Both the position numbers and the translations under genes were made by a program. Below the pieces are notes generated by a model, which did no database searches, was not told the origin of the DNA, and saw nothing but the letters and a program-made list of their open reading frames with translations. Shown here piece by piece: positions 7,116-23,047 of a stretch of 24,051 nt of DNA (positions within the stretch are counted from its first letter, which is position 1; every line of letters begins with the position of its first letter). Source of the DNA: Clostridia bacterium. GTDB lineage: Bacteria > Bacillota > Clostridia > Oscillospirales > CAG-382. The DNA lies in NCBI GenBank assembly GCA_017938055.1, contig JAGBCG010000120.1, forward strand, positions 1 through 24,051, given 5' to 3'.

Positions 7116-8672
7116 TCATATACCCCCTTTTACGAATTTTGTCTTTATTTTACTTATGATTTCCACAGCTGTCGGGACTCTCATAGCTATAACACAAATG
7201 CCGTAGACAACAACTCCAGTAAAGCATAAAATTCCAAGCACGAGGATTCTGTCAAGAGCTATACCTAGTCCGAAATTTTCAGGCAAAATGTATCTTAGTA
7301 CGCTCACCACGCAATACATTATCACAGAAGACAGAGTACACTTAATGAAGCTTTTTGCACAGCCCTTTGCAAAGCTTCCTATTTTTCTTCTTAACATAAT
7401 AAGCAAAACGCAAAGTCCCACAATAGAAGAAAGCGAGTACGCCAGCGGCAGTGCGTAGCCTGACATAAACGGCATCAGAACAAGGCTTAAAAGTATATTT
7501 GCCGCCATTATGATAAATCCGTTTATTGCGGGAAATTTTGTGTCCTTAAGGGAATAAAAAGCTCTGTCTATAATTTCCTTTGAGCCTACGCTCACAACGC
7601 TAAGGGAATACAACAGCATTATAACAGAAGCCTTTTGTATGTCCTGTGCCCCGTTTTTTCCCCAGCCGATTATAAGCTCAAGCAGCTCATATCTCACCGC
7701 AATAAAGCCCGCACTTATAGGTAAAAGCAACATCCACACATTTATGAGAACTCCCGACAGCGTGCTTTTATAGCTGTCCATATCCCCCACAGCCGCCGCC
7801 TTTGTTAGCTTTGGATACAGCACCGACGTTACCGAATACACAAAGGCAAGCACCATGTATACCACAAGGTTCTGCACATATGTCATTACCGTCACAAAGC
7901 CGTCAAAGCTTGCCGCCATGCTGTTGTTGTAAAACACATTTATCTGATATGAGCTTGCTCCCAGAAAAACAGGAAGCATCATGCGAAACGCCGATTTCAT
8001 GTCGTCGTCCTTCAAGTCAAACCTGACTTTATAGCGATAACCCGACCTTATGAGTGGCGGAATGAGAAGCAATGCCTGAAGTGAAAGACCTAAGGCTGTA
8101 ACAACAACAAGTCCCATAACGCCGTACTTGTCGGCAAACAAAAGTACATATACAATTATTATTATGCTTCCCGGTGCACTGACAAATGCAGGCATAAAAT
8201 ATTTTCCCACCGACTGAAGCATACCTTGAAAAATGTAGTTGAGTCCGTAAAACAGCATTACAGGCATAAGTATCATAAGTGCCTTTACCGCAAAGCTATA
8301 GCTTTCGGGACTGTCAAAGCCGGTGAATTTCGGAAGTACAAAGGAAAGTGCCATTCCGCACAGTACAAGAAGCAAGGTAAACACGCTTGCCACAGTAATT
8401 ACATTATCCGCAAAGCGTTTTGCACCATCATAATTTTTGTTTGCTATGTGAGAAGCATATATTGGGATAACAATGGTGGAAAGGGTTGTTCCGAAGCAGT
8501 TGAATATGGTGTTTGGTATAGTCACGGCGTAGGAATAAATATTTATATAAACATCCTCCGTGCCGAAAACTGACACATACATGGACGAGCTGACAAGTGC
8601 AAGAACTCTTGACAGAAGCATTATTATCATTACATAGCTTATGCTTGTCAACAAGCCTTTCTTTTCTGACAA
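7116..8672 (-). CDS. murJ: MurJ/MviN-family lipid-linked glycan flippase
   Basis: LLSRVLAL, IPNTIF, ~13-14 TM segments, RAFYSLKDTKFP, ALPLAYS. TTG start with a GGAAGGGA RBS. Context suggests it flips a cell-wall polymer unit rather than (only) lipid II. Confidence 0.85.
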   Translation of the reverse strand: MSEKKGLLTSISYVMIIMLLSRVLALVSSSMYVSVFGTEDVYINIYSYAVTIPNTIFNCFGTTLSTIVIPIYASHIANKNYDGAKRFADNVITVASVFTLLLVLCGMALSFVLPKFTGFDSPESYSFAVKALMILMPVMLFYGLNYIFQGMLQSVGKYFMPAFVSAPGSIIIIVYVLLFADKYGVMGLVVVTALGLSLQALLLIPPLIRSGYRYKVRFDLKDDDMKSAFRMMLPVFLGASSYQINVFYNNSMAASFDGFVTVMTYVQNLVVYMVLAFVYSVTSVLYPKLTKAAAVGDMDSYKSTLSGVLINVWMLLLPISAGFIAVRYELLELIIGWGKNGAQDIQKASVIMLLYSLSVVSVGSKEIIDRAFYSLKDTKFPAINGFIIMAANILLSLVLMPFMSGYALPLAYSLSSIVGLCVLLIMLRRKIGSFAKGCAKSFIKCTLSSVIMYCVVSVLRYILPENFGLGIALDRILVLGILCFTGVVVYGICVIAMRVPTAVEIISKIKTKFVKGGI

Positions 8673-8812: not shown

Positions 8813-9655
8813 TTACTTCAAAGTAATGCTGTCAGGCATTATGCCGGATTTATACTGACTTGGTGTAACGCCCAGTTTCTTTTTGAAAACTCTGCAAAAA
8901 TACGAGGTGCTTTCAAAATTCAGAGCTTCAACAATGTATTCAAGTGTGGTTTCACCGCTTTCAAGCATTTTCCTTGCGATATTAAGTCTTAAATCCATCC
9001 GGTATTCCATAGGACTTTTGCCTGAATACTCCTTGAAAAGCCGTCTGAAATGACATGAGCTCACATTACATGCCTTTGCAATTTCTTCTATTGAAATATT
9101 ACAAAGGGTATCTGATTCTATAAGCTCAATGCCCGTGCTGATAGGTGAAAACCGCTTATCGTACTTTCGCACTTTCTCCTTGCAAATGTGTAAAATAAGG
9201 TTATATACTGAGGTTTTTATTGCTAAAGCCGACGGCACTGAGGCTTCATAAGCCTGAACTACATTTTCAAAAAGGTCAGCCGCTATAGGAACATTTACAT
9301 CCTTTATTATAAATGGTTTGTCGGAAAAGGTGAGTATGCTGTCATTTTCTATTGCATTGAATTCGACCTGTATTGCATCATTCAGATTGCTTTCGCACTC
9401 AAGGTTAAGACAAGTATATTCGCTTGCATACGGAAGACAAACAATACTTTTTCTTGGTGCAGTAAAGCTTTCTCCGGTTTTGTCAGTGTATACTCCTGTA
9501 CAGTTATTAAGAAAGATGATGCCTGTTCTTGGCCTTGGTTTGAATCTTTCGAAAAGTACACCTTTTTTCCATATTTGTCGCATGGCAAAAATGTCCTCAA
9601 GGGCAAAATTTGTAAAATAAAAATCTCTTAAATTCAGCGTTTTACGTTTTAACAT
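8813..9655 (-). CDS. AraC family transcriptional regulator
   Basis: C-terminal double HTH SIEEIAKACNVSSCHFRRLFK...SPMEY...FESTSYFCRVFKKKLGVTPSQYK. GAGGTG RBS at 9664-9669 favours ATG 9655. Confidence 0.95.
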   Translation of the reverse strand: MLKRKTLNLRDFYFTNFALEDIFAMRQIWKKGVLFERFKPRPRTGIIFLNNCTGVYTDKTGESFTAPRKSIVCLPYASEYTCLNLECESNLNDAIQVEFNAIENDSILTFSDKPFIIKDVNVPIAADLFENVVQAYEASVPSALAIKTSVYNLILHICKEKVRKYDKRFSPISTGIELIESDTLCNISIEEIAKACNVSSCHFRRLFKEYSGKSPMEYRMDLRLNIARKMLESGETTLEYIVEALNFESTSYFCRVFKKKLGVTPSQYKSGIMPDSITLK

Positions 9656-9675
9656 CAAAACATCACCTCAAAACA

Positions 9676-9747: not shown

Positions 9748-9776
9748 TTGTAATAAAAAACTTTCAATGCTATAAT
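9748..9776 (+). promoter_or_regulatory. Sigma-A promoter of the catabolic operon
   Basis: TTGTAA (9748-9753)-17 nt-TATAAT (9771-9776) with extended -10 TG. Confidence 0.8.
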
Positions 9777-9813
9777 GATGTTGAATAAAGAAAATTACCT
9801 GGAGGCAGAAAAT

Positions 9814-10866
9814 ATGAATAAGATTAAACTCAGTACCCTTAAAAGCTTTTGCGAAGAAGCACTTGTAAAATCAGGTGTGTCCAAACAAAATGCACAAATG
9901 GTTGCCGACACCCTCATAACCACCGATACCTTTGGTGTTATGACACACGGAACAAAAAATCTTAACCAGTACATTCAGAAAATGAATGCCGGCGGACTTG
10001 ATGCTAAAGCTGAACCTGTTGTTGAGGTACAAGGTCCTGCTTTTGCCATTATAAACGGCAACAAAGCAATCGGCATGGTATCTGCCTGCAAGGCTATGAA
10101 GCTGGCTATCGAAAAGGCAAAGCAAACAGGTATTGCATACGTAGGTGTAAAGAACAGCTGTCACTTCGGTGCGGCAGGTTATTATGCAAATCTTGCAGCT
10201 AAAGAAGGCATGATCGGCCTTGCTATGAGTAATGCAGACCCTGTAATCGCAGTTCCCGGCGGAAGAAGCAAAGCAATAGGAACAAATCCCTTTTCTTTTG
10301 CTGCACCCACAGCGGACGGAAAAAGTGTATTTCTTGATATTGCACTCAGCAATGTTGCAGCACTTAAAGTTATTATGGCACAGGAAAAGAATCAGGCAAT
10401 TCCTGACACCTGGCTTGTGGACGAAGAAGGTATTCCCACAAATGATGCTTTTAAATTCCCCAAAAATGCAAGTCTGCAGCCCATGGGTGCACACAAGGGT
10501 TATGGTTTGGCAGTTCTTGTAGAATTGTTGTCATCTGTTATGACAGGTGCAGGTATTTTGAGTCAGGTGACAAGCTGGAATCTGGATCTTTCATCTACAA
10601 ATAATGCAGGTCATGCTTTTATTGCCATTGATATATCCCAGATGATGCCCAAAGACGTGTTTAATTCACGCATGACTCAAATGATAGATGAATTAAAGAA
10701 CGGACCTAAAGCAAAGGGTGCTGAAAAAATATTGTTGCCCGGCGAAATGGAATGGGCTAAGAGAGAGCAGGCACTTGAGTCAGGTGAGCTGGTTCTTACA
10801 GATGCTATGGCAGCAAGTCTTCAGCAGCTTGCAGCTTCTACAGGTCTGGCACTTGAATTGTATTAA
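9814..10866 (+). CDS. Ldh_2 family NAD(P)-dependent oxidoreductase (type 2 malate/L-lactate/sulfolactate dehydrogenase family)
   Basis: GVMTHG, NSCHFGAAGYY, GTNPFSFAAP, LDIALS, GAHKGYGL, LLPGE. Start reassigned to ATG 9814 behind GGAGG (9801-9805). Confidence 0.92.
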   Translation: MNKIKLSTLKSFCEEALVKSGVSKQNAQMVADTLITTDTFGVMTHGTKNLNQYIQKMNAGGLDAKAEPVVEVQGPAFAIINGNKAIGMVSACKAMKLAIEKAKQTGIAYVGVKNSCHFGAAGYYANLAAKEGMIGLAMSNADPVIAVPGGRSKAIGTNPFSFAAPTADGKSVFLDIALSNVAALKVIMAQEKNQAIPDTWLVDEEGIPTNDAFKFPKNASLQPMGAHKGYGLAVLVELLSSVMTGAGILSQVTSWNLDLSSTNNAGHAFIAIDISQMMPKDVFNSRMTQMIDELKNGPKAKGAEKILLPGEMEWAKREQALESGELVLTDAMAASLQQLAASTGLALELY

Positions 10867-10906: not shown

Positions 10907-11569
10907 ATGGAAAAGACAATGTACGGTATTTTAAAGACAACAGGTATTTGTCCAATTATGGTAGCACCCGAATTAGACTTTGCTGCAGATGCAGCACGTG
11001 CCATTGCAGAGGGAGGACTTCCCGTATGTGAGGTTTTGCTTCACAGAGATGAAAACTCACTTAACAGAATTAAGAAAATTGCTCTTGAAGCAACAGAGGT
11101 AACAGTTGGTGCAGGCTCGGTAATTTCTATAAGAGATGCCAAAGAAGCAATCGATGCAGGAGCAAAATTCTTTGTTTCTCCCGGATTTGTACCGGAGGTT
11201 GTTGAATTTGCTTTGAAGAAGAACATCCCGATTTTGCCCGGCTGCGTTACAGCAAGCGATATTTCATTGGCACTTAATTACGGAATAAACATTCTGAAGT
11301 TTTTCCCTGTTTATCAGCTTGGCGGAAAAGACACTCTTGCTCAGTATCACGGCGGTCCGTTCGGAAATGTTGAATGGGTTGTTACCGGCGGACTTAACGG
11401 AAACAACTTCTTGCCCTTTGCTGAAATAGATTATGTTCTGGCTTCGGGCGGTGACTGGATGTTTGCTGAAAACAATGCTATCAATGACAAAAATTATGAG
11501 CAGATTGTTCTCAACATGCGTAAAACAATCAAGGACGTTTTAAATCTACGTGCTCAAAAAAAGAACTAA
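10907..11569 (+). CDS. KDPG/KHG aldolase (Eda)-like class I aldolase
   Basis: GGLPVCEV, VGAGSV, GAKFFVSPG, PILPG, LKFFP (Schiff-base Lys), GPF, TGG, GGDW. Confidence 0.88.
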   Translation: MEKTMYGILKTTGICPIMVAPELDFAADAARAIAEGGLPVCEVLLHRDENSLNRIKKIALEATEVTVGAGSVISIRDAKEAIDAGAKFFVSPGFVPEVVEFALKKNIPILPGCVTASDISLALNYGINILKFFPVYQLGGKDTLAQYHGGPFGNVEWVVTGGLNGNNFLPFAEIDYVLASGGDWMFAENNAINDKNYEQIVLNMRKTIKDVLNLRAQKKN

Positions 11570-11624
11570 GCATCCGTATTTGATACTCTCTTACATATAT
11601 GTAACGTTTTAAAAGGAGAAAGAT

Positions 11625-12473
11625 ATGAATAGCATACAGGATACATTCAGAACATACAACGGTGTTGAAATACCATGTATGGGACTTGGAACCTGGCAAT
11701 CAAAGGACGAGGTTGCCAGAATATCGGTGCTCTGTGCACTTTCTCACGGCTATCGACTTGTGGATACTGCAGCCGCTTACGGAAATGAACGTGGCGTAGG
11801 TGCAGGCATAAAAGACAGCGGACTTGCGAGAGAAGAAATTTTCATTACAAGTAAGCTTCGTAATGCCGACCATGGATATAAAGCTACTCTTGACGCATTT
11901 GATTTGACTATGGAAAAGCTTGGACTTGACTATCTTGACCTTTATCTTATTCATTGGCCGAATCCTGTTCAATTCCGTTCAACCTGGAAAAAAGCTATGC
12001 AGGACACCTGGAGAGCTTTTGAAGAGCTTTATAATGCGGGCAGAATCCGTGCAATAGGCATAAGCAATTTTATGCCCCACCATATAGAAGCTTTAATGGA
12101 AAGTGCAAAAATCAAGCCGATGGTTAATCAGTTAAAGCTTTGCCCGGGAATTACACAGAGTTCGGTTGTTGAATATTGCAAGAAAAACGAAATAGTTGTT
12201 GAAGCATACAGCCCCTTTGGAACAGGTGCAATTTTTACTTCCGATGAAATGAAAAATTTATCTCAAAAATATAACAAGTCTATCGGTCAGCTTTGTCTGA
12301 GATGGTGCTTACAAAAAGGCTTTGTGTCGCTGCCTAAATCCGCAAACCCCATGAGAATTAAAGAAAATACAGAAATATTTGATTTTGAGCTTTCTGCACA
12401 GGACATGAATATTATCTCTTGTCTTGAAGGAATATGCGGCGAAGCTCCCGATCCTGACAATATTCTGTTCTAG
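11625..12473 (+). CDS. Aldo/keto reductase (2,5-diketo-D-gluconate reductase-like)
   Basis: GLGTWQ, catalytic tetrad intact (DTAAAY, TSKL, LIHWP), IGISNF, AYSPFG, LPKSANPMRIKEN. Confidence 0.93.
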   Translation: MNSIQDTFRTYNGVEIPCMGLGTWQSKDEVARISVLCALSHGYRLVDTAAAYGNERGVGAGIKDSGLAREEIFITSKLRNADHGYKATLDAFDLTMEKLGLDYLDLYLIHWPNPVQFRSTWKKAMQDTWRAFEELYNAGRIRAIGISNFMPHHIEALMESAKIKPMVNQLKLCPGITQSSVVEYCKKNEIVVEAYSPFGTGAIFTSDEMKNLSQKYNKSIGQLCLRWCLQKGFVSLPKSANPMRIKENTEIFDFELSAQDMNIISCLEGICGEAPDPDNILF

Positions 12474-12482
12474 GGCATCGAT

Positions 12483-13946
12483 ATGAGAATTAAAAACAAA
12501 GAAAAGCTCACCTCTCATTCAAATGTATACGGCAGAAAAATAGTTACCGAGCTTCTGGATGCAGGACTTGATGCTCTTGACCCGTACTTTAGAGTAAAAC
12601 AGTTCATTAAGGTTGAAAACAATAAGATTATACTCAACAATGAGGGCTTTGAGATGAAAGACGATCCTCATTCGGGACCCGTTGAATTTAATCTTAAAGA
12701 TTATGACAGAGTTTTCCTGTTTGGTGCAGCAAAAGGTATACAACGTGCAGCACTTGCTTTTGAAGAAGTTCTTGGCGACATTTTAACAGCCGGCCACGTT
12801 ATTGGCAAGCACGGAGAAGAAATTATATGCAAAAAGATAGGTGTAACATTGGCAGGACACCCTGTTCCTGACAGCTTTTGTGTTGAAGGTTGTAAAAAAA
12901 TCGAAGAGCTTCTGAAAGATGTCACCGAGCGTGATTTGGTATTTTCCATTTTTGGCAGCGGCTGCGGCTCTCTTTTCACTTATCCTGCAGGAAATATTAC
13001 GATTGACGATATTTCCCGCTTCACAAGGATGATGCAGATTGAAAAAGGTGTGCCCACAAGTGATTTGAATCAGATACGAACTCATATTGACCGCTTTAAA
13101 GGTGGAAGAATTACACGTGTGATTAAAAAAGCAACTCATGTATGTACGGTTACTGCCGATCCCTCAAAAATGGCAACTCCCGTTACCAGAGTGCCGTATT
13201 TCGAAATGCTTAAAACCAACACCTTTTTCCCAACAGTAGCAACGGCTTCAACATATGATGATTGTATAAACATAATCAACAAATGGGACGCATGGGATGA
13301 AACGCCTGATTCCATAAAAGAGCACTTGCTTTCAGGCACGTGCGAAACGGAAAACATGTCGGTGGAAGAATTTGAAACATATGGCTGTCGATTTTTTGGC
13401 TTGATTTTCAAGGATTCAACAGTATATCCCGCTGTCAGAAAAAAAGCCGCTGAAATGGGGCTTAAATGTATAATGCTTTCGGAATATATGGAAGCTGAAG
13501 CATGTCAGGCAGGGTTTGTTGACGGAAACCTGGCATTATGCTGTGAGAGAATGGGCGAGCCGTTCAGTGCACCTGTAGTTTTAATGTCCTCGGGAGAAAA
13601 TGTCGTTACTGTGGGCAAGGAAAAGGGCGTGGGTGGAAGAAACCAGGAATATTGTCTTGGTGCTGCCTTAAGAATTGCAGGAAGTGAAAAAATAGTTATT
13701 GGTGCTGTAGACACTGACGGAACAGACGGTCCGGGAGGCTTTTGTTACAAAGGAGCACCAAGCTGTCTTTCAGGAGCCGTTATAGATGGCTTTACGGCTT
13801 GTATTGCAAAAGAAAAAAACATTGATTTATGGAATGCCTTGAAAACCCACGGAACAAGCGAGCCGCTTTGGCTTCTTGACAGTGCTGTGGAAGCGGTTAC
13901 AGGTGTTTCAGCACTCGACTTGAGAATAATTTTTATAGGAGATTAA
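12483..13946 (+). CDS. Class II (MOFRL/DUF4147) glycerate 2-kinase-like protein
   Basis: GHPVPD, SDLNQIRTHI...KGG, GGRNQE, DTDGTDG, C-terminal motif equivalent to TGTNVxD (TGVSALD). Confidence 0.85.
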   Translation: MRIKNKEKLTSHSNVYGRKIVTELLDAGLDALDPYFRVKQFIKVENNKIILNNEGFEMKDDPHSGPVEFNLKDYDRVFLFGAAKGIQRAALAFEEVLGDILTAGHVIGKHGEEIICKKIGVTLAGHPVPDSFCVEGCKKIEELLKDVTERDLVFSIFGSGCGSLFTYPAGNITIDDISRFTRMMQIEKGVPTSDLNQIRTHIDRFKGGRITRVIKKATHVCTVTADPSKMATPVTRVPYFEMLKTNTFFPTVATASTYDDCINIINKWDAWDETPDSIKEHLLSGTCETENMSVEEFETYGCRFFGLIFKDSTVYPAVRKKAAEMGLKCIMLSEYMEAEACQAGFVDGNLALCCERMGEPFSAPVVLMSSGENVVTVGKEKGVGGRNQEYCLGAALRIAGSEKIVIGAVDTDGTDGPGGFCYKGAPSCLSGAVIDGFTACIAKEKNIDLWNALKTHGTSEPLWLLDSAVEAVTGVSALDLRIIFIGD

Positions 13947-13948
13947 AT

Positions 13949-15250
13949 ATGTTTGGTACAATAATTAAATCCGTTAAAGCATATCAGGTTTATACCAACA
14001 GAGGCAAGCCCGGCGTTGAAGTAATAGTTACCACCGAAAACGGAGCACAAGGACGAGCTATGTGTACTTCGGGAGTTTCAATAGGAACTCATGAAGTTGA
14101 TTTTACCTTCGACGGCGGAACAAAGTTTGGCGGCAAGGGTGTAACTCAGGCAGCTAAAAGAGTTGAAGATATAATTGCACCGGTGATTATCGGCATGGAT
14201 TCTGCAAATCAGGCAGAGGTTGATGCGGCAATTTTAAACATCTATCCCGATGAAAAGGTAAGACTTGGAGGTAATGCTGTTGCTGCAACAAGTGCTGCAG
14301 TACTTAAAGCAGGTGCAAATTCCCTTGGAATTCCTCTTTATCGTCATATAGGGGGAGCTGGTGCTATGTATCTTCCTGTTCCAGGTGTAGCCATGGTTGC
14401 CGGTGACGAGCGTTATGGCGGAGGAATAACTACCCCCGGCGGAAAGCCCACAATGTCTGTTATGGCATTTGGCTTTGATACTTTTTCTGATGCCTCCTAT
14501 GCGTGCTGGGAAGTACATACACGTTGGGCAGAAAAGATGAAAAAGCTGTTCGGTGGACTTCCAAATATCCGCGATTTTATCTCAATTCCCCAAGGAATAT
14601 ATAAGTCCGACAGGGAAATATGGGAAGAAATGCTCAAAACTATTATTGAAGCAGGTTATGAGGGAAAAATGGGCTTCCAGATGGATGTTGCAACAGATAC
14701 ATATCACAACAAACAGGATGATAAATACTATGGTCTGTTTGACAACACACCCAAAACAAAAGAACAGCTTTTTGATTTTTACATGCAGATTATTAAAGAC
14801 TATCCGTTTGTCATCATAGAAGACCCATTTAATGAGGACGATTACGATGCAACAGCACTTCTGACTAAGGAAAGCGGTATTCAAATAGTGGGTGACGATT
14901 TATTTACCACAAATCCCAAGCGTGTTGCTTATGGAATTTCAAAGGGAGCTGCAAACACCGTTCTGTTAAAGGTAAACCAGGTGGGTAGTATATCCGAGGC
15001 TCTTGACATGATTCAATATGCTTACAAATTCGGCTATGGTGTAATGCCCTCAGACAGCCGTGGAGAAGGAGAATCTATTGCTGACTATGCAGTAGGTATA
15101 AATGCAGGTTCAATACGTGAAAGTGCAATAGGGCCAAGAGGAAACAGATTCTTGGAAATTGAAAAAGAGCTTGGCTCGTCTGCAAAATTTATGGGTGCAC
15201 GCTCACTTAAGGGATTTCGTAACATTATGAGAGCAGACGGTAAATTATAA
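13949..15250 (+). CDS. Divergent enolase homologue (probably not a canonical 2-phosphoglycerate dehydratase)
   Basis: Enolase fold motifs RGKPGVE, SGVSIG, GGKGV, MDVA, IEDPF, VGDDLFTTN, LLKVNQVG are present, but several catalytic and phosphate-binding residues are substituted (see findings). Confidence 0.85.
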   Translation: MFGTIIKSVKAYQVYTNRGKPGVEVIVTTENGAQGRAMCTSGVSIGTHEVDFTFDGGTKFGGKGVTQAAKRVEDIIAPVIIGMDSANQAEVDAAILNIYPDEKVRLGGNAVAATSAAVLKAGANSLGIPLYRHIGGAGAMYLPVPGVAMVAGDERYGGGITTPGGKPTMSVMAFGFDTFSDASYACWEVHTRWAEKMKKLFGGLPNIRDFISIPQGIYKSDREIWEEMLKTIIEAGYEGKMGFQMDVATDTYHNKQDDKYYGLFDNTPKTKEQLFDFYMQIIKDYPFVIIEDPFNEDDYDATALLTKESGIQIVGDDLFTTNPKRVAYGISKGAANTVLLKVNQVGSISEALDMIQYAYKFGYGVMPSDSRGEGESIADYAVGINAGSIRESAIGPRGNRFLEIEKELGSSAKFMGARSLKGFRNIMRADGKL

Positions 15251-15266: not shown

Positions 15267-16694
15267 TTGTTTAAACAGTATATTAACGGACAGCTTGTAG
15301 ATGGCAAAGGCAAGGCAATGAATGTATATGACCCGGCAACAGATGAAATTGTTGATGTGGTTGGATGTGCTGACAAAGAACAGACACTGGAAGCATTAAA
15401 TGCAGCAAAAGAAGCCTTTAATTCATGGTCAAAAGTTCCGGTAAGTGAGAGGGCAAAATGGCTTTACAAGTTCAGAGAAGCATGTGTACAAGAGCGTGAT
15501 ACTTTAGTTGAGCTTGTAATGAAAGAGTCAGGACGTCCATATGCTGCTGCATGCGGAGATGTTGACTGGCTTCTTACCAGCTTATCATATTATGCAGAGG
15601 AAGCAAAGAGAATTAATGGTACCATTCTGCCCAGCATTATGGTAGGTGACAAAGTAAATCACCACATGATTGCTAAAGAACCGGTAGGTGTAACGGTGGC
15701 ACATCTTGCATGGAACTATCCTCTTGGCAACGCAGGTATAAAGCTTGCACCGGCAATCGCTTCAGGCTGTGCTTGCATAATCAAGCCCTCAAGCCAGACA
15801 CCTCTTGCTACTTTGTATCTTGGTGTCATTGCAGAAAAAATAGGCTTCCCAAAAGGTGTACTCAATATTTTGGCAGGCCCCTCCGGTGAAGTTGCAAAAA
15901 CACTCAATGAAAGCAATATTCCAAGACTTATCTCCCTCATCGGCTCATACGAAACGGGTCTTAAGCTTATGCAACAGGCTTCTACCTCTGTAAAACGCTT
16001 TTCTCTTGAATTGGGTGGTAATGCTCCGGTTGTTGTTATGCCCGATGCAGACCTTGACGAAACTGCTGCAAATATTGTGGCAAAAAAAGTTGGCTTTGCC
16101 GGACAAACCTGTGTAAACTACAACAGAATTTACATTCACAAAGATATATATGAAGTTATGTGCGACAAGATAGCCAAAGAGCTTTCAAAGGTTAAGCTTG
16201 GAAAGCATAAAGACGAGGGTTATGTAATGGGTCCTGTAATTGACCTGCAGGCACGTGACAGAATGTTAGAGCTTATTGAACAGGCAAAGCAGAATGGTGC
16301 TACACTCGTTATGGGTGGTGAAGTGCCGGCAAATCAAAAAGGCAGCTATATAACACCTGCTTTACTCAAGGATGTAAATGACAGCATGAGAGTATCCACT
16401 GAGGAAATATTCGGACCGATTATCCCTGTTCAGCCCTTTAGCACCATTGATGAGGCGATTGAAAAGTCCAACAACACCATCTTCGGCTTATCAGCATACT
16501 TCTTTGGACACAATGCACAACAAATGACACGCTACATCGAAGGAGTTAAGGCGGGAGAAATATTTGTAAACGGCGGTATTGGCAGCGAGTTTACTCCTCA
16601 TGCGGGTGCAAAACAATCGGGTATTGGTTGTGATAAGTCAAAAGACTCACTGGAAGAATACTACGATATCAAGTTTATATCACTTATTTCATAA
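15267..16694 (+). CDS. NAD(P)-dependent aldehyde dehydrogenase (GabD/AldA-like)
   Basis: WNYP, KPSSQTP (like the NADP-type KPASQTP of E. coli GabD), LELGGNAP, AGQTC, EEIFGP. TTG start behind GGAGG. Confidence 0.93.
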   Translation: MFKQYINGQLVDGKGKAMNVYDPATDEIVDVVGCADKEQTLEALNAAKEAFNSWSKVPVSERAKWLYKFREACVQERDTLVELVMKESGRPYAAACGDVDWLLTSLSYYAEEAKRINGTILPSIMVGDKVNHHMIAKEPVGVTVAHLAWNYPLGNAGIKLAPAIASGCACIIKPSSQTPLATLYLGVIAEKIGFPKGVLNILAGPSGEVAKTLNESNIPRLISLIGSYETGLKLMQQASTSVKRFSLELGGNAPVVVMPDADLDETAANIVAKKVGFAGQTCVNYNRIYIHKDIYEVMCDKIAKELSKVKLGKHKDEGYVMGPVIDLQARDRMLELIEQAKQNGATLVMGGEVPANQKGSYITPALLKDVNDSMRVSTEEIFGPIIPVQPFSTIDEAIEKSNNTIFGLSAYFFGHNAQQMTRYIEGVKAGEIFVNGGIGSEFTPHAGAKQSGIGCDKSKDSLEEYYDIKFISLIS

Positions 16695-16708: not shown

Positions 16709-17686
16709 TTGAACAAAACTATTGATTTGATTGGTTTCGGAGATCCGTATCTGGATCTTGTTGTAAAGCTTAACAGACTGCCGCAAACCAACAAAAATAC
16801 TACAATAAACGACTATGGTTTTCAGGGCGGCGGCAATGTGCCCACCGCTTGTGTGGCAGCGGCAAGGCTTGGTCTTAAAACAAGTCTTATAGGCTGTGTG
16901 GGAAATGATTTGTTTGGTAAAATTTCTCTTTCTGACTTAGAGTATAACAATGTAAACATCTCAAAAATGAGTGTTCAGAACGAGAAAAAAAGCAATTTCT
17001 GCATATGTGTTACCGAAGATGAAGTGAACGGGAAAGAGTTTATAAGCAAGCCCGGTGATTTTTCTCCAATCACAGAGCAGGAAATAGACGAGGAGTTTTT
17101 CGCATCCACAAGAATGATGCACGTAGCTCTCATTACTCCTGCTGTGGCAAAGGCTTGTGACATTGTACACAAGCATGGCGGTAAAATCAGTGTAGATGCA
17201 AACTATTATCGTGCGTATACATATGATTATTACGATAAAATAGATATATTTATCGGCTCTGAGCTTTACTATGACTCTTTTTGCCAGGACAAAGGACTTG
17301 ACAGAAATGAATATGCAAAAAATATGCTTCTTTTAAAGTCGTTTGGCCCTGAGATTGTTATTTTCACCTTTGGTCCTGAGGGCTGCCGCGGCATTTACGA
17401 GGATAAGTATTTTGAAATACCTGCTTTTGACGTTGAGGTTGTTGATACAACAGGTGCGGGAGACGTTTTCCATGGAGCATTTGACTATGGATATTTGCAG
17501 GGCTGGGATGTTGAAAAATGTGCTGTTTTTTCCAGTGCTGTTTCTGCTATTAAATGCACCCGTCCCGGCGGTCGAAGCGGTATACCAACATTAGATGTTG
17601 TAACAAAATATCTTGAAACCGGAATTATAGATTATAGTGAGATTGATAAGCGAGTAAAACATTATGAAAGCGGTATATTAATCTGA
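16709..17686 (+). CDS. PfkB/ribokinase family sugar kinase
   Basis: GGGNVPTACVAAARLG, VGNDLFG, VDTTGAGDVFHGAF signature, KCTRPGGRSGIP. TTG start behind AGGAG. Confidence 0.93.
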   Translation: MNKTIDLIGFGDPYLDLVVKLNRLPQTNKNTTINDYGFQGGGNVPTACVAAARLGLKTSLIGCVGNDLFGKISLSDLEYNNVNISKMSVQNEKKSNFCICVTEDEVNGKEFISKPGDFSPITEQEIDEEFFASTRMMHVALITPAVAKACDIVHKHGGKISVDANYYRAYTYDYYDKIDIFIGSELYYDSFCQDKGLDRNEYAKNMLLLKSFGPEIVIFTFGPEGCRGIYEDKYFEIPAFDVEVVDTTGAGDVFHGAFDYGYLQGWDVEKCAVFSSAVSAIKCTRPGGRSGIPTLDVVTKYLETGIIDYSEIDKRVKHYESGILI

Positions 17687-17708: not shown

Positions 17709-18533
17709 GTGCGTTTTGAACTGAACGAAATATTGAACATTGGCGAAAAAAATGGATTTGCCATTCCTGCTTTTAATGTGTACACAATGGAAAATGTGCT
17801 GGGCGTTATGAATGCCGCACAGGAAACGGGTTCTCCCGTGATTTTCCAGATGTATAGCCGTCTTTTCGGCACACAGGTAGGAAAGTTTCTTGCACCTGTT
17901 ATCCTGGAAGCAATAAACGAGCTAAAAACTCCTGCAGCTTTTCATATTGACCACGGCACAGGCGAAGACATGGTTATCCGTGCAATACGGTATGGTGCAA
18001 CAGGAGCTATGATTGATGCTTCTACCTTGCCTTTACAGGAGAACATATCCAAAACAAAGCGTGTTGTTGAGTTTGCTACAGCTGCGGGCATATCAGTTGA
18101 GGGTGAGCTTGGTCATATCGGTAATACAGCAGAGGAAATTTCCAGCGAGTATACCAATGTTGACGATGCTGTACAGTATGTTGAACAAACCAGTGTTAAG
18201 GCTTTGGCAATTATGGTTGGTACAGCACACGGCAAATACAAGCAAACACCTAAGCTTGCCATTGACAGAATTGCCCAAATCCACGCTGCAACAGATGCAC
18301 ATCTTGTATTACACGGTGGTTCGGGCGTTCCCGATGAACAAATAAAACAGGCAATCAATGCGGGTATTCGCAAGATAAATTTTGCAACAGACCTTGCTCA
18401 TGCATTTATTGACGGATGTCGTGAGCTTGATGCAAAAAAATATCCCTTAGATGTTTATCTTGCTCATCCCACAGAGAAAGTTAAAGAATTTGCCATCAGC
18501 AAAATCAAGCTGTGTGGCTCAGATAAATATTAA
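17709..18533 (+). CDS. Class II (Zn) ketose-phosphate aldolase, FBA/TBA family
   Basis: AFNV, HIDHG, MIDAS, VEGELG, GTAHG, VLHGGSG, KINF. GTG start behind GAAAGGA. Confidence 0.92.
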   Translation: MRFELNEILNIGEKNGFAIPAFNVYTMENVLGVMNAAQETGSPVIFQMYSRLFGTQVGKFLAPVILEAINELKTPAAFHIDHGTGEDMVIRAIRYGATGAMIDASTLPLQENISKTKRVVEFATAAGISVEGELGHIGNTAEEISSEYTNVDDAVQYVEQTSVKALAIMVGTAHGKYKQTPKLAIDRIAQIHAATDAHLVLHGGSGVPDEQIKQAINAGIRKINFATDLAHAFIDGCRELDAKKYPLDVYLAHPTEKVKEFAISKIKLCGSDKY

Positions 18534-18566
18534 TTAAAAAACACTAATTTAAAAGGAGAATTGATT

Positions 18567-19391
18567 ATGAATTACCCAAGCTATTACAGCATTTCTGCAG
18601 CAGATCTCGAAAAGGACAGCAAGATTCCTATGATTTTGTTTGAAAATTCCGGTGAAGTTTATTTTGAATATGCACTGGAAATGTTGGAGGAGGTTGTTAA
18701 AAACAACGCCGAAGGAAAGAAAACTGTTTTCATCTGTCCTTGCGGTCCTGTAGAACAATACCCCATCTTCGCAAGACTTGTAAATGAACGTAATGTAAGT
18801 CTTAAAAACACATGGATTATCAACATGGACGAATATTTGACTGATGACGAAGAATGGATTGAAGAAAGTTCACCATTTTCTTTCCATGGCTTTATGAATC
18901 GTTTCCTCTATGAAAAAATAAAGCCTGAGTTGGTAATGCCGAAAGAACAGAGAGTGTTCCCTGATCCTCACTGTCCCGAAAAAATCGGTCAGCTTATCGA
19001 AAAGCTTGGCGGTGTTGATATGGTTATGGGCGGAATTGCCGTAAACGGTCACATTGCGTTCAATGAGCCTATCAGCAACATGAGCACAGAGGAATTCGCA
19101 TCACTTCCCACCCGTGTAGTTGAACTCAGTGCTGAAACACGTATTAAGGATGCAATCCTCAGCCGTGGCGGTGCTATTGATACCATGCCTAAAAAAGCTA
19201 TCACTGTTGGTATGAAAGAAATGATGGCTGCTAAAAAGCTTCGTTTGTCAATGGTAAACAACATGCAGCGTGCTGTAATTCGCCGTGCTACACATGGTGA
19301 AGTTACTTCAGAATGTCCTATCACATTTGTTCAGAATCATCCTGATGCAGTTTTGTTTGTCAGCAAGAACGTAACAGAGCTTCCGTTCTGA
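18567..19391 (+). CDS. Glucosamine-6-phosphate deaminase/isomerase (NagB)-like protein
   Basis: NMDEY, SFHGFM, GGVD, GHIAFNEP, TRVVEL, AITVGM, HPDA. Start set at ATG 18567 (AGGAG at 18554-18558). Confidence 0.85.
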   Translation: MNYPSYYSISAADLEKDSKIPMILFENSGEVYFEYALEMLEEVVKNNAEGKKTVFICPCGPVEQYPIFARLVNERNVSLKNTWIINMDEYLTDDEEWIEESSPFSFHGFMNRFLYEKIKPELVMPKEQRVFPDPHCPEKIGQLIEKLGGVDMVMGGIAVNGHIAFNEPISNMSTEEFASLPTRVVELSAETRIKDAILSRGGAIDTMPKKAITVGMKEMMAAKKLRLSMVNNMQRAVIRRATHGEVTSECPITFVQNHPDAVLFVSKNVTELPF

Positions 19392-19409: not shown

Positions 19410-20588
19410 ATGTTAGCAAATTCGTATTTTTGGATAGGAAACGGCACTACTGTTTTGCCCGGCAGAGCGTGTAAGCAGGGTTCTGTTCTTGTGAAAAATG
19501 GTAAAATCCTTGCTGTCAATGAGGCTTGTCCACAGGGTGTTACAAGAATTGATGCAAAAGGCGGATATATTTTACCGGGCTTTATAGACTTACACGTACA
19601 TGGCGGTGGTGGTGCGGATTTTATGGATGCAACGCCTGAAAGTGTTGCTACAGTTGCCATTGCCCATGCTAAACATGGTACAACCGGTCTGCTTGCTACA
19701 TCCATGACCAGCACTAACGATGTCCTTGAAAAAATGATCAACAGCTATTTAATAGCCGAAGAAAAAGGAACAGGCGGAGCTGAATTGTTGGGTCTGCACC
19801 TGGAAGGACCGTATTTCTCTGCTAAAAATAAAGGTGCACAGCCAGTTAAGGAACAGCGTATTCCCACACGTGAAGAGCTGGAATATTTCATTAAACTGGC
19901 AAAGGGACGAATTGTCCGTTGGGATGAAGCACCTGAGCTTGAAAATACAGATGTGTTTGCTCAGGTTATGAAAGAAAACGGAATTATAGCGTCTATTGCA
20001 CATACTTCCGCTATTGCTGCACAGGCGTATGCTGCATTTGATATGGGCTTTTCTCATATAACACATTTTTACAGTGCCACAACAACAGGTCAGAAAATTG
20101 ATGGTCTGTGCTATTCAGGCGTTAATGAAGCGACCTTTCTTGATGACAGAATCACTGTTGAACTGATTGCAGACGGCAGACATATTCCCAGAGAGCACAT
20201 GCTTTTAACGTATAAAATCAAGGGTGCTGACAAGCTGGCATTAATTACCGATGCCATGCGTGCAGCCGATACAAATGATACTCAAAGCATACTTGGTGCA
20301 ATGGACACGGGAGTGCCTGTTGTTATTAAAGACAATGTTGCACAGTTGCCTGATTTTTCTTCTTATGCAGGCAGTGTCGGCACAATGGACAATGCGTTAA
20401 GAGTAGCCCATGTGAGATATGGTATTCCTCTTGTGGATGTTGTGAAAATGATGTCCCTGACACCTGCCAGGATCATTGGTCGCAGCCATGATAAAGGCAG
20501 CCTTGAAGTTGGCAAGGATGCGGATATTGTAATCATGAACAACGATTTTGAGGTTGAAAGCGTATATGTTTGTGGAGTTGAAATATAG
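19410..20588 (+). CDS. nagA: N-acetylhexosamine deacetylase (NagA amidohydrolase family)
   Basis: PGFIDLHVHGGGG, HLEGPY, IAH, THF, IADGRH, ITDAM, AGS, TPA, GSLEVGKDADIV. Confidence 0.88.
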   Translation: MLANSYFWIGNGTTVLPGRACKQGSVLVKNGKILAVNEACPQGVTRIDAKGGYILPGFIDLHVHGGGGADFMDATPESVATVAIAHAKHGTTGLLATSMTSTNDVLEKMINSYLIAEEKGTGGAELLGLHLEGPYFSAKNKGAQPVKEQRIPTREELEYFIKLAKGRIVRWDEAPELENTDVFAQVMKENGIIASIAHTSAIAAQAYAAFDMGFSHITHFYSATTTGQKIDGLCYSGVNEATFLDDRITVELIADGRHIPREHMLLTYKIKGADKLALITDAMRAADTNDTQSILGAMDTGVPVVIKDNVAQLPDFSSYAGSVGTMDNALRVAHVRYGIPLVDVVKMMSLTPARIIGRSHDKGSLEVGKDADIVIMNNDFEVESVYVCGVEI

Positions 20589-20649: not shown

Positions 20650-20688
20650 AACTGACACTGTTTTATTATAGTGTCAGTTTTTCTTTTG
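20650..20688 (+). terminator. Rho-independent terminator ending the catabolic operon
   Basis: AACTGACACTG-ttttatta-TAGTGTCAGTT 11-bp stem (one G-U pair) followed by a T-rich tract. Confidence 0.85.
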
Positions 20689-21695: not shown

Positions 21696-22969
21696 TCATA
21701 TTTCGCTGACATAACGCCAAGTGGACGGCTTTCCCTCAAGCTCGTCTGCCATGTTTATGGCAAGGATGTTCCAGTTTACAAAGTCGGGACTCATTACAGG
21801 CTCTCTTGTTTCGGGATTGTAGTATTCATGCAATGTTCCGGTTTTTCTTAAGTCATCACCTAAAAGCGAAAGAGTTTTTTTGGCAATAATTTCTGCTTCT
21901 TCTTTAAGACCATAGTTCATAAGTCCTCTGAAAACGGCATACTGTGCGATAATCCATATAGGTCCGAGCCAGTTTGACGGGTTTGAGGATGCGTCAAGAT
22001 TGTACATTTTTTCGTCCCTTGAAAGTGAGCGAATACCGCCATTGCTCATATATGTGTTTTCATCAAGAATATGCTTTGCAAGCTCCTTTGCCTGCTGGTC
22101 TGTTGCAATAGAGCAAAGCATGGGAAGAAAGCTTGACCAGCTTCTCACCTTTATAAACAGCGTGTTCCAGAATACTCCAAGTCCCTTGTGGAACCAGTCG
22201 TAAGAACGGCATTTGATGTCAACATCCACGCTGTAGAACAGCTTGTCTCGGTTATCATAACATTCGTCCTGAACAGCTTGTGCAAGCTTTTGTGCTTTTT
22301 GCTCATATACGGTGTATTCTTCGTCACCGGTTTCTTTTAAAAGCTTTGCCATACATTTAAGCTCATTTACAAGGAATGAATTAAGGAATATGCCTGCCGT
22401 TGAAAATCTAGGTCTTCCAAATGCGGACGGGTCGTTGTCAACGCCAATCAAAACGTCATTTGCCCATACGTAAAGACCACATCTTTCATTGTAATAATAT
22501 TTGTCATAACAGGCAATATAATTTTTAGCTGGCAGATATATGGCTTTATCCATTCAAAAGAGCCGCTAAAGCCTGACACAAGACATACCTGATGGCAAAG
22601 AAAAGGCTTGTGCATATTGAGAATATCTCCGTCCTTGTGCTTCTTTATAAGGTAGGGGGTCTCGTTGTTTGGATTAAGCACCATTATAGGTATATAGCCG
22701 TCCTCAAGCTGAAAGGACAAAAAGTTAAGCACATTCCCTTTACCACATTCAATGATTTTTTCACGAAAGCCCTCAGGTGAGTTTCCGTTTTCAGCAACAT
22801 TTATCATCGCGAATGTCGCCCAAAAAGTATCCCAGTCCCATAGCTGTTGATTGTATGAAAAGCCGGGGTCAACAAAGGGATATTTGTAATTACCGCAAGG
22901 CTCTTTCATAGCCTTGTCAAGCTTTTCGAAAAGATATTCTTCAATGAGCTGTTTATCTGATTTGTTCAT
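21696..22969 (-). pseudogene. GH63/GH37-like (alpha/alpha)6-barrel glycoside hydrolase split by a 1-bp frameshift (true pseudogene or sequencing error)
   Basis: N-half from ATG 22969 (LWDWDTFW, NMHKPFLCHQ) and C-half (GVDNDP, NPSNWLGPIW, LHEYYNPET) join if one A is added to the A5 run at 22522-22526 (CAG CTA AAA AAT TAT, giving ...ICQLKNYIACYDKYY...). Confidence 0.8.
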
Positions 22970-23047
22970 GATAGTTCTTCCTTTTTGATAAAGTGTTTTG
23001 TACTGACAAAAAAGTCTGAAAAAGTACAAATAAAAGCACGTGGCTAT

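Follow-up and report, generated by a model that had tools for sequence, protein, structure and literature searches.

Few enzymes are as conserved or as well understood as enolase, and the enolase subgroup is generally treated as monofunctional. Three other described systems bear on the locus studied here. The lower branch of the archaeal non-phosphorylative ED pathway consists of a KD-acid aldolase, an aldehyde dehydrogenase, a MOFRL glycerate 2-kinase and enolase. Sulfo-EMP and sulfo-EMP2 clusters are marked by YihV, SqiA, SqvD/SftI, the DUF4867 proteins SftX/SqvB and SLA dehydrogenase, and we know of no sulfoglycolysis cluster that has a MOFRL kinase or an enolase-like gene. ComA (PF02679), an enzyme of coenzyme M biosynthesis, interconverts PEP + sulfite and 2-phospho-3-sulfolactate. 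A literature search covering MOFRL/DUF4147 function, enolase-like proteins with sulfolactate, L-glycerate kinase and DUF4867 found no paper describing a pair of an enolase-like protein and a kinase.

The window, the whole 24,051-nucleotide stretch of Clostridia bacterium DNA that was analysed, carries at 13949-15250 on the + strand an intact open reading frame for a 433-residue enolase-like protein, P0001. Pfam Enolase_N (E 2e-34) and Enolase_C (E 1e-53) span its full length. Its AF2 model (mean pLDDT 93.2) is a complete enolase fold, the best 50 Foldseek matches in the PDB all being enolases with TM 0.83-0.89. P0001 shares with canonical enolase (EC 4.2.1.11; PF03952 + PF00113; yeast ENO1, 2pa6) the two-domain fold, the Mg ligands, the S39 loop and the Lys345 base, and it has the hallmarks of the enolase subgroup (capping domain, modified TIM barrel, three carboxylate metal ligands and a Lys ending strand 6). 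Its closest full-length relatives are all enolases, and it is 33-36% identical to the canonical ones. In the Pfam search it falls outside the MR/MLE group, the N-domain being Enolase_N with no MR_MLE_N match and MR_MLE_C reaching only 38.9 bits across 89 residues; ComA family PF02679 gave no match at E <= 0.01. However, the score against the NCBIfam model TIGR01060 'eno' is 283.5 bits, below the curated equivalog cut-off of 300 bits, whereas the true enolases of related genomes score 566-679 bits. Public labels for proteins of this type are 'enolase' or 'enolase C-terminal domain-like'. The public sequencing runs that contain the stretch are DNA only, all of them animal gut metagenomes.

Active-site residues were assigned from two alignments that agree, one to M. 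jannaschii enolase 2pa6 with HMMER and one of 112 sequences with MAFFT, and are given in yeast enolase numbering with P0001 numbering second. The Mg ligands D246, E295 (E291) and D320 (D316/D317), the second-metal residue S39 (S44) and the base K345 (K341) are kept, and are invariant in 121 of 121 orthologues. In contrast to canonical enolase, H159 is R155, inside the motif RYG; Q167/E168 are P167/T168, following an insertion of 3-4 residues; the general acid E211 is F210; H373 is D369; R374 and S375 are S370 and R371, 'RS' thus reading 'SR'; and K396 is R390. An extra Lys, K166 ('GGKP'), precedes position 167, and K166, R208 and R155 are positive residues gained in the site. With the Arg shifted one position later, H159 now an Arg and the S39/second-metal loop intact, the phosphate site, as far as the alignments reveal it, is rearranged and not lost. 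An earlier note on this DNA had listed D246, E295, D320, S39 and K345 as retained and H159, E168, E211, the SHRSGE motif and K396 as changed, and both lists are right in both alignments. Its description of the phosphate site as replaced was overstated, since two Arg and the second-metal loop are still present. P0001 is unlikely to act as an ordinary 2-PGA enolase, a view already taken in that note and supported here; its first chemical step is probably that of canonical enolase, and its product is perhaps PEP as well.

All the substituted active-site positions are invariant in 121 close orthologues of P0001, as is K166, and 252 of the 433 positions are >= 99% conserved among orthologues. In the 84-92% group the E211 loop, the H373 position and all other substituted positions are fixed; across orthologues at 50-65% the E211 loop (F/R/-) and the H373 position (D/S/A) vary, and the E211-loop region of the AF2 model is of low confidence (pLDDT 63). 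This pattern of conservation shows that purifying selection acts on P0001, evidence for a new function and against decay, in line with the neofunctionalisation supposed earlier. Decay to a pseudogene is ruled out by the intact frame, the overall conservation and the invariance of the substitutions. P0001 falls in a monophyletic clade of uncharacterised kinase-coupled enolase-like proteins (support 1.0), for which we coin the name 'RYG'. Its motifs, carried by 14 of the 112 representatives, which group as this one clade, are RYG in place of GxHAG, an insertion with G-G/D-K-P-[TSV] in place of QEF, and S-R-G-E-G in place of RSGET; the position of K166 is Lys or Arg in most members. In a broad phylum sample, clade-A relatives were found in only 2 of 401 genomes.

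Unlike canonical enolase, the RYG clade is linked to a MOFRL kinase and usually occurs alongside a true eno; the exception is the short contig L008 (P0143), where no kinase gene lies by the RYG-clade gene. In the window the kinase stop codon (TAA, 13944-13946) and the enolase-like ATG (13949) are separated by 2 nt, the kinase gene and the ribosome-binding site being placed as follows.

12483-13946, + strand: DUF4147/MOFRL kinase of the glycerate-2-kinase family, divergent, 487 aa (Pfam DUF4147 E 5e-34, MOFRL E 1.5e-15)
13937-13942, + strand: Shine-Dalgarno AGGAGA, read from the sequence, within the last codons of the kinase gene and 6 nt before the ATG

The short gap and the ribosome-binding site inside the kinase gene fit co-translation of the two genes. 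Archaeal glycerate-2-kinase models give the kinase just 83 bits against a cut-off of 550. A DUF4147/MOFRL gene adjoins the RYG-clade gene in the window, in L002-L007, L009, L042-L044 and L047 and in GTDB loci. Of six further loci examined, five have this arrangement, L008 being the sixth, and besides L004-L007, L009 and L047 the adjacency is seen in at least 30 operon loci. The kinase accompanies orthologues at 65%, 51%, 45% and 41% identity and a relative 59% identical to P0123, in neighbourhoods that are otherwise unrelated (LysR only; MFS; TRAP; sugar ABC with a LarA-like gene). The coupling to a MOFRL kinase proposed from the window is therefore real and conserved far outside it, and favours consecutive steps. 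Minimal cassettes in other loci consist of the kinase and the enolase-like gene alone, without an aldolase; such a two-gene cassette must be self-sufficient, in keeping with two steps that follow each other and lead to a central metabolite. L047 brings together a LarA-type gene, a MOFRL kinase and an RYG enolase-like gene, and thus has the enolase clade and the kinase partner in common with the window, which lacks LarA. The window's pair is set in a far larger sugar operon with two aldolases, and this narrows the likely origin of the acid on which the pair would act.

That operon, conserved in gut Clostridia, comprises 10-12 genes, among them the two aldolases, an aldehyde dehydrogenase and a PfkB kinase. 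Apart from the pair, its elements in the window are as follows.

8813-9658, - strand: AraC-family regulator, divergent from the operon (Pfam HTH_AraC, HTH_18), in the same place in related loci
9748-9776, + strand: promoter-like site upstream of the operon (consensus scan, 10/12 matches, TG extension), a pattern match only
9775-10866, + strand: Ldh_2 family 2-hydroxyacid dehydrogenase (Pfam Ldh_2 E 6e-111), first gene of the conserved block
10907-11569, + strand: Eda-type class I aldolase (TIGR01182 163 bits, cut-off 156)
11625-12473, + strand: aldo-keto reductase, DkgA-like (Pfam Aldo_ket_red; NF008598 238 bits, below cut-off)
15267-16694, + strand: NAD(P) aldehyde dehydrogenase (Pfam Aldedh E 6e-137)
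16709-17686, + strand: PfkB-family sugar kinase (Pfam PfkB; best PDB match sulfofructose kinase YihV, 104 bits)
17709-18533, + strand: class II (PF01116) ketose-phosphate aldolase (TIGR00167 234 bits, cut-off 216)
18561-19391, + strand: NagB-like deaminase/isomerase (NCBIfam nagB 106 bits, below cut-off; no Pfam match)
19410-20588, + strand: NagA-type N-acetyl-amino-sugar deacetylase (TIGR00221 245.7 bits, cut-off 225.65)
20650-20679, + strand: terminator-like hairpin ending the operon (12-bp stem, then a T-run), a pattern match only

Just downstream is a GH63/MGH1-like (mannosylglycerate-hydrolase-type) gene. Most related loci have, in place of the NagB-like gene, a FucI-like isomerase (PF02952) and DUF4867. 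A homologue of the cytoplasmic PL27-type Rha-GlcA lyase is found within or beside the operon in at least eight loci and a PL8 lyase in one; the window's variant has NagA and the NagB-like gene and no lyase gene. RhaM, like the PL27 lyase, lies near the operon in related loci. The PL27-bearing carriers have KduI elsewhere in 4/5 cases and RhaA elsewhere in 5/5, which weakens a reading of the operon as an L-rhamnose or a KduI-type unsaturated-uronate route; the L-rhamnose route is weakened further because PF01116 aldolases as a rule form or split 3S ketose phosphates, which rhamnulose-1-phosphate is not.

The enzymes that would generate the acid carry substitutions of their own. Aligned to E. 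coli KDPG aldolase 1eua, the Eda-like aldolase keeps E45, R49, K133 and TGG, while GGSW has become GGDW; this change in the phosphate pocket (E. coli S184 to D) is present in 27 of 27 operon orthologues. In the aldehyde dehydrogenase the motifs WNYPLGNAGIK and KKVGFAGQTC put I and G at the positions of hSSADH R213 and R334, all 24 orthologues having I/V/L and G/T in place of the SSADH/SLADH Arg pair, and the His/Asn pair proposed for SLA dehydrogenases is also missing. The K27/N109/R138 sulfonate triad of YihV reads N/S/I in the operon PfkB kinase. Given the Asp in the Eda-like aldolase, the missing Arg pair and the missing triad, the kinase, the dehydrogenase and both aldolases appear suited to substrates whose distal group is neutral, which points to glyceraldehyde and then glycerate.

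Since the operon has an Eda-type aldolase and no other candidate dehydratase, P0001 might instead dehydrate a longer sugar acid, either free or phosphorylated by the MOFRL kinase, and feed a 2-keto-3-deoxy acid to that aldolase, as part of hexuronate or amino-uronate breakdown along Ashwell- or ED-like lines. An isomerase (FucI- or NagB-like), a reductase (AKR/SDR), a dehydratase, PfkB and Eda would follow the logic of hexuronate catabolism, and uronate-releasing lyases are close by. Acid-sugar dehydration is the commonest reaction of the enolase superfamily, and the variable, poorly predicted E211-loop region could mean a larger pocket. We nevertheless consider this quite improbable. The minimal cassettes have no aldolase, the retained S39/second-metal loop and two phosphate-site Arg argue for a 2-phosphate, the aldolase S184 to D change argues against KDPG, and we know of no enolase-subgroup member that acts on aldonates. 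A dehydratase of a non-phosphorylated acid, one of the roles first suggested for P0001, fits the kinase coupling poorly.

A separate canonical eno (> 600 bits), the presence of which the earlier note had proposed to check, was found in four of the five other carrier genomes of the RYG clade but not in the window's own genome or genus (0/13 congeners). In these four the RYG paralogue serves for something other than ordinary enolase activity, and since the 13 congeners lack both canonical eno and the RYG gene, it is not the lineage's replacement enolase either; these two facts exclude the housekeeping enolase of an enolase-less lineage as a general explanation. P0001 may still convert D-2-phosphoglycerate to PEP as the private end of a glycerate branch, K166 or Y156 standing in for E211. 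Like the lower non-phosphorylative ED pathway, here matching the archaeal set, and the glucarate/galactarate branch, routes with either an aldehyde dehydrogenase or a TSA reductase, the operon encodes side by side an Eda-like aldolase, an ALDH, a MOFRL kinase and an enolase fold; D-glycerate and the housekeeping enolase serve in those routes, whereas in the operon the enolase is rewired, the phosphate pocket of the aldolase contains an Asp and a second aldolase arm, leading to DHAP, has been added. The downstream GH63/MGH1-like gene would free D-glycerate, and two-lysine acid/base pairs function in other members of the enolase superfamily. The window's genus has PGK, so that under ordinary enolase function P0001 would be its sole route to PEP. 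Against this, six residues that are near-universal among enolases are substituted, and in the enolase mutational literature the loss of some such residues costs roughly 10^4- to 10^5-fold activity; the E211 loop is unconserved between the 50-65% orthologues, the NCBI curated model and naming do not say enolase, and there are the carriers with a second, canonical eno and the congeners with neither gene. Ordinary enolase function is thus unlikely.

The same genomes bear on another possibility, that P0001 racemises or epimerises a 2-phospho-hydroxy acid, such as L-2-PGA into D-2-PGA, by means of K341 and a newly acquired second base and without elimination. In its favour, P0001 retains the base and metal site but has lost the general acid, as the earlier note argued, and the canonical enolase of four of the five carriers could use the product. 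However, the window's genus has no enolase to consume D-2-PGA, no conserved residue is known to lie on the opposite face, and LarA-type 2-hydroxy-acid racemases adjoin the pair in other lineages, which would make the racemase suggested in the earlier note redundant. We regard it as highly improbable.

Our preferred reading, in which belief and doubt are about equal, is that P0001 is an active, neofunctionalised lyase of the enolase subgroup that acts after the MOFRL kinase and forms PEP from a C3 acid phosphorylated at position 2 that is not D-2-phosphoglycerate. The kinase would phosphorylate the 2-OH of a small 2-hydroxy acid; the enolase-like enzyme would hold the 2-phospho acid on two Mg ions, K341 (yeast K345) would take the alpha-proton, and the beta substituent would be expelled without the Glu168/Glu211/His373 machinery to give phosphoenolpyruvate, the phosphate of which would repay the ATP spent by the kinase. 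The acid would most likely be the oxidised aldehyde from the class II ketose-1-phosphate aldolase and the Eda-like aldolase; the aldehyde-to-acid step (ALDH) is encoded next to the pair. 2-Phospho-lactate, phosphotartronate, phosphomalate and 2,3-bisphosphoglycerate were rejected as substrates on chemistry or energetics, either because nothing could leave from the beta position or because ATP would be spent futilely.

Our guess is that L-2-phosphoglycerate is the leading candidate substrate and phosphosulfolactate the second. In L-2-phosphoglycerate the phosphate and the CH2OH trade places, which would explain why R374 and both Glu are lost and Lys/Arg gained. One example route would run from unsaturated glucuronate, which the PL27-type and PL8 lyases by the operon would supply, to DKI, then by the aldo-keto reductase to 2-keto-3-deoxy-L-galactonate, and from there to pyruvate and L-glyceraldehyde and so to L-glycerate. 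DKI reduced at C1 is 2-keto-3-deoxy-L-galactonate (4S,5S), whose 4S centre should be acceptable to an Eda-type aldolase and which is cleaved to give L-glyceraldehyde. Several points count against the preferred reading. To our knowledge all characterised MOFRL kinases use D-glycerate. The PL27 carriers have KduI and RhaA elsewhere and would not need a second DKI route, and the variant in the window, with NagA and the NagB-like gene, is lyase-less. The Eda-like aldolase requires a 2-keto-3-deoxy acid in an operon with no dehydratase other than, possibly, P0001, and the scheme gives the Ldh_2 gene no definite role.

With about three to four positive charges added on balance, the site could just as well be made for a substrate with an extra anion, such as a sulfonate or sulfate. 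P0001 would then convert to PEP either 2-phospho-3-sulfolactate, from sulfoquinovose-type sugars, or 2-phospho-3-O-sulfoglycerate, from 6-O-sulfated GlcNAc/Gal; the anionic sulfite or sulfate would leave without acid catalysis, in what would be for sulfolactate the ComA reaction reversed on an enolase fold. ComA itself is a biosynthetic enzyme without a kinase partner; it belongs to an unrelated family with another fold, and its sequence shows no similarity to that of P0001. The loss of both Glu and the gain of K166, R208 and R155 resemble a new anion pocket in which a general acid is not needed. As in sulfo-EMP clusters, most operon copies have the PF02952 isomerase and DUF4867, a pair typical of Firmicutes sulfoglycolysis clusters, followed by an ALDH. 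The best PDB matches of the operon kinase and class II aldolase are, respectively, YihV and the class II SqiA sulfofructose-1-phosphate aldolases (8q58, 8q57), AgaY and YdjI coming next for the aldolase. The top NCBIfam match of the Ldh_2 gene is L-sulfolactate dehydrogenase, with ureidoglycolate dehydrogenase the other best match, both well below cut-off, and the NagA/NagB-like variant would suit GlcNAc-6-sulfate. However, the sulfonate-binding residues of YihV and SLA dehydrogenase (Arg171/Arg289 or His/Asn) are missing from the operon proteins, the Eda-like aldolase has an Asp in its anion pocket, and no sulfoquinovosidase (GH31), sulfonate/sulfite exporter or sulfatase was found near about 35 loci, four of which do carry GFO/IDH/MocA genes, a possible SqgA. 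The operon is unreported in rumen microcosms amended with SQ, and a review of SQ catabolism from 2026 is silent on it. The sulfolactate suggestion in the earlier note thus fared unevenly, the structural matches favouring it and the residue checks and missing sulfoquinovose-specific genes speaking against it. A sulfoquinovose operon was accordingly downgraded, and a desulfonating or desulfating lyase is unlikely.

Returning to the PEP-forming lyase, we tentatively propose, with rather more doubt than belief, that the pair constitutes a 'phosphorylate, then eliminate' route, so far undescribed, by which a C3 acid that glycolysis cannot use becomes PEP; the acid would be either L-glycerate (an enantio-complementary 'L-enolase') or 3-sulfolactate/3-O-sulfoglycerate. 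The pairing with a kinase makes it probable that the clade marks a new way for a hydroxy acid to reach PEP. The enolase subgroup would gain a new reaction from such a widespread sister clade, in which fold, metal site and base are unchanged but the leaving-group side has been rebuilt, and the sulfolactate or sulfoglycerate version, if true, would be a new oxygen- and radical-independent cleavage of a C-S or C-O-S bond. Annotation pipelines could wrongly use this gene to plug the glycolysis gap of the host genus, which apparently lacks canonical enolase. The presence of the operon in uncultured gut and rumen Clostridia suggests uronate-lyase products, non-phosphorylated amino sugars, glycerate enantiomers and sulfolactate as candidate substrates, and in gut Clostridia the pair, if the proposal is true, would be the exit of a 10-12-gene glycan-sugar pathway that bypasses 6-phosphorylation.

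The open reading frame at 13949-15250 (+) is intact and encodes a 433-residue enolase-like protein, P0001, which is spanned in its entirety by the Pfam domains Enolase_N (E = 2e-34) and Enolase_C (E = 1e-53). Against the curated NCBIfam enolase model TIGR01060 it scores 283.5 bits, slightly short of the 300-bit cut-off, compared with 566-679 bits for the true enolases of related genomes, and its close homologues are labelled 'enolase C-terminal domain-like protein' by NCBI. The best matches in a PDB search are enolases without exception (33-36% identity), led by M. jannaschii 2pa6 (E = 5e-76). An AlphaFold2 model computed from a 60-sequence alignment had a mean pLDDT of 93.2 and a pTM of 0.93, and Foldseek matched it to enolases only, with TM 0.83-0.89 across the top 50. 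The lowest-confidence segments of the model are 201-210, the loop equivalent to that of yeast E211, and the two mobile active-site loops, 41-50 and 151-170.

Active-site residues were mapped in yeast numbering by two alignments, HMMER to 2pa6 and MAFFT of 112 full-length representatives, which agreed with each other and bore out the list of kept and changed residues in the earlier note.

Active-site residues of yeast enolase and their equivalents in P0001
S39: S44, kept
D246: D246, kept
E295: E291, kept
D320: D316/D317, kept
K345: K341, kept
H159: R155, changed (motif RYG for HAG)
Q167/E168: P167/T168, changed (preceded by a 3-4 residue insertion with K166 last)
E211: F210, changed (NIRDF for VGDEG)
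H373, R374, S375: D369, S370, R371, changed (SDSRGE for SHRSGE)
K396: R390, changed

The phosphate site, which that note had considered replaced, is rearranged but not abolished: an Arg is shifted one residue on, an Arg replaces H159, and the loop of the second metal is preserved. The new Lys, K166, adjoins the position of the lost Glu168 and is invariant among close orthologues, and the net gain over enolase is ∼3-4 positive charges.

Across the 121 nearest homologues, at 84-92% identity, conservation reaches 99% or more at 252 of the 433 positions; R155, Y156, K166, P167, T168, F210, D369, S370, R371 and R390 never vary, and R208 is present in 120. The fixation of the substituted residues argues for a new function rather than decay. 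A distant-homologue search covered 1.8 billion 50%-identity cluster representatives, and the RYG and SRGEG-type motifs are common to 14 of 112 full-length top matches, which form a single clade in the tree (support 1.0). This RYG clade, named for the motif replacing HAG, has no solved structure among the PDB matches of P0001. The metal and Lys set is complete in one branch (P0001, P0122 (65%), P0123 (51%), P0132, P0127 and P0143), and K345 and other residues are lost in the other (P0124, P0128, P0130, P0133, P0135, P0139, P0204 and P0260). Orthologues at 50-65% differ in the E211 loop and at the H373 position, so the leaving-group side is not tied to one fixed acid. RYG-clade genes occur in tandem at L006:8551-11287 and L009:4736-7332; in the latter, the only locus examined for the second branch, the P0124 copy lacks the catalytic Lys and falls in a separate sub-branch. 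In some lineages such pairs may form catalytic/non-catalytic heteromers. Uniform sampling of Bacillota shows the clade to be rare, with members in 2 of 401 genomes at a threshold of E ≤ 1e-100. In gut metagenomes it is common, 3,249 of the scored candidate proteins reaching E ≤ 1e-20; the sequencing runs holding the window are DNA only, from animal gut metagenomes. Separate from the RYG clade is another group of non-canonical enolases, in which QEF is replaced by QDF and SHRSGE by SARSGE, and the acid Glu of GDEGG/ADEGG is retained (P0186, P0208, P0223, P0238, P0244, P0245, P0257, P0261 and P0263).

A separate canonical eno, for which the earlier note had proposed a search, was not found in the window's genome (a MAG of 1.53 Mb, 75% complete), where the P0001 gene is the sole enolase-model match, and was present in four of the five other operon-carrying genomes, in which the paralogue (276-286 bits) is accompanied by a true eno (627-667 bits). 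No enolase-model match was found in 13 congeners, most of them >90% complete; in the family as a whole 1 genome in the 18 scanned has a match, and in the order most do. Phosphoglycerate kinase (PGK) was found in 10 of 12 congeners. The lineage thus seems to run glycolysis without enolase. Since the congeners also lack the paralogue, it is not their enolase substitute, and overall the census favours a function for P0001 distinct from that of enolase. An isofunctional enolase using Lys as the acid would suit an operon whose gene set corresponds to the lower non-phosphorylative ED branch, with a GH63/MGH1-like gene downstream, but given the extent of the rewiring and the true eno alongside we consider it improbable.

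By Pfam, the gene directly upstream (12483-13946) encodes a DUF4147/MOFRL protein, a divergent member of the glycerate-2-kinase family that reaches only 83 bits with archaeal glycerate-kinase models (cut-off 550). Its stop codon lies 2 nt from the ATG of P0001, with AGGAGA within the final kinase codons. The pairing recurs across otherwise unrelated neighbourhoods.

Other loci with the kinase/enolase-like pair
L004 and L005: the pair with a LysR gene only
L006: the pair with an MFS transporter and a second enolase-like gene
L007: the pair alone, on a short contig
L009: the pair with a TRAP transporter and an FAA-hydrolase gene
L047: the pair with a CUT1-type sugar ABC importer, a LarA-type racemase, a xylose-isomerase-like TIM-barrel gene and a phosphohexomutase

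At L047 (G040:C113) the gene for the LarA-type nickel-pincer racemase homologue, 11491-12981, directly follows the pair. A racemase role for P0001, which such a neighbour would render redundant, is very improbable. A two-gene cassette, which has to be self-sufficient, points to the kinase product as the substrate of the enolase-like enzyme and to a central metabolite as the end product, for which PEP is the obvious candidate. These minimal cassettes, and the retained second-metal and phosphate features, also count against a sugar-acid dehydratase supplying the operon's Eda-like aldolase, a quite unlikely role despite the lack of any other dehydratase in the operon.

Orthologues of P0001 (72-92%) were found in 32 species-representative genomes, from uncultured gut and rumen Clostridia (Acutalibacteraceae, Oscillospiraceae, Lachnospiraceae, Ruminococcus-like) and one Victivallales MAG. 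Downstream of an AraC gene, the conserved order is Ldh_2, Eda-like aldolase, SDR (some copies), AKR, MOFRL kinase, enolase-like gene, ALDH, PfkB kinase, FucI-like isomerase (PF02952), class II aldolase, SDR (some copies) and DUF4867. The window's copy is atypical in having NagB-like and NagA genes at its end instead of the isomerase and DUF4867; in several other loci NagA/NagB-like or amidohydrolase genes accompany the isomerase. In at least eight loci, in Clostridia (L019:1616-3676, L020, L023, L024, L002:16730-18736, L026, L042:2898-4910 and L043:17056-19062), the operon is opened or closed by a gene for a ∼670-690-residue homologue of the PL27 L-rhamnose-α-1,4-glucuronate lyase BACCELL_00875 (5no8, E = 5e-109), which is covered by no Pfam model and looks cytoplasmic, no signal peptide being obvious by eye. 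Extra genes are a PL8 lyase in one locus and rhaM in two; no conserved transporter was found in the operon loci compared. The GH63/MGH1-like gene (mannosylglycerate-hydrolase type) at 21696-23029 (-) is apparently split into two overlapping frames of 285 and 193 residues, and of the domain only the C-terminal half is recognised; the split may be a frameshift or assembly error, and a 42% homologue adjoins the operon in L026. Upstream, 1487-8672 (-) is a cell-envelope polysaccharide locus unrelated to P0001 (a 747-residue GT4 glycosyltransferase/polysaccharide pyruvyl transferase fusion, a Wzy-like polymerase, DUF4330, a second GT4 and MurJ).

Compared with the KDPG aldolase of E. coli, the Eda-like aldolase (10907-11569) retains E45, R49, K133 and the TGG loop, and in 27 of 27 operon orthologues Asp replaces S184, a phosphate-pocket residue; in a KDPG/KHG-type aldolase this change suggests a non-phosphorylated 2-keto-3-deoxy acid as substrate. 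The ALDH is closest to succinate-semialdehyde-type enzymes, and all 24 orthologues have I/V/L and G/T at the distal-anion Arg-pair positions of SSADH and sulfolactaldehyde dehydrogenase. The best solved relative of the PfkB kinase is the sulfofructose kinase YihV, whose sulfonate triad K27/N109/R138 is N/S/I in the operon enzyme, and those of the class II aldolase are SqiA sulfofructose-1-phosphate aldolases, which lack the partner-subunit Arg that binds a 6-phosphate. Judged from these residues, the sugar intermediates seem to carry no 6-phosphate and probably no anion at the distal end, which would make glyceraldehyde the simplest aldehyde from both aldolases, and glycerate the acid. A phosphosulfolactate or phospho-3-O-sulfoglycerate lyase would account for the positive pocket and missing acid of P0001, the sulfoglycolysis-like kinase and aldolase, and the PF02952 isomerase and DUF4867, and the NagA/NagB variant would suit GlcNAc-6-sulfate; however, with the anion-binding residues missing from the neighbouring enzymes and no sulfo-specific gene found at the operon loci, this reading is unlikely.

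We put at about even the chance that P0001 is a lyase that produces PEP and that its substrate is a 2-phospho C3 acid different from D-2-PGA. The scheme employing most operon genes is convergent. In one arm PfkB and the class II aldolase, together with either the isomerase or the NagA/NagB-like genes, would yield DHAP and an aldehyde; in the other, the AKR or SDR and then the Eda-like aldolase would yield pyruvate and an aldehyde; and ALDH, MOFRL kinase and the enolase-like enzyme would convert the aldehyde to PEP. The second arm could start from 4-deoxy-L-threo-5-hexosulose uronate (from unsaturated glucuronate), C1 reduction of which would give 2-keto-3-deoxy-L-galactonate, having the 4S centre used by Eda-type aldolases; its cleavage would lead through L-glyceraldehyde and L-glycerate to L-2-phosphoglycerate, a chain drawn from stereochemical reasoning on established structures rather than any computed result. 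L-2-PGA is the leading specific candidate substrate, proposed tentatively. For this enantiomer to use the same Lys base and metal-bound carboxylate, the phosphate and CH2OH must exchange positions, which would explain the loss of R374 and of both Glu, and the new Lys and Arg.

Neither literature searches on MOFRL/DUF4147, enolase-like proteins with sulfolactate, L-glycerate kinase and DUF4867 nor a review from 2026 on the catabolism of sulfoquinovose yielded a function for the kinase/enolase-like pair. The fold and predicted first half-reaction of P0001 are those of the enolase family, whereas its substrate and leaving-group chemistry, as read from the sequence, are probably new to it.
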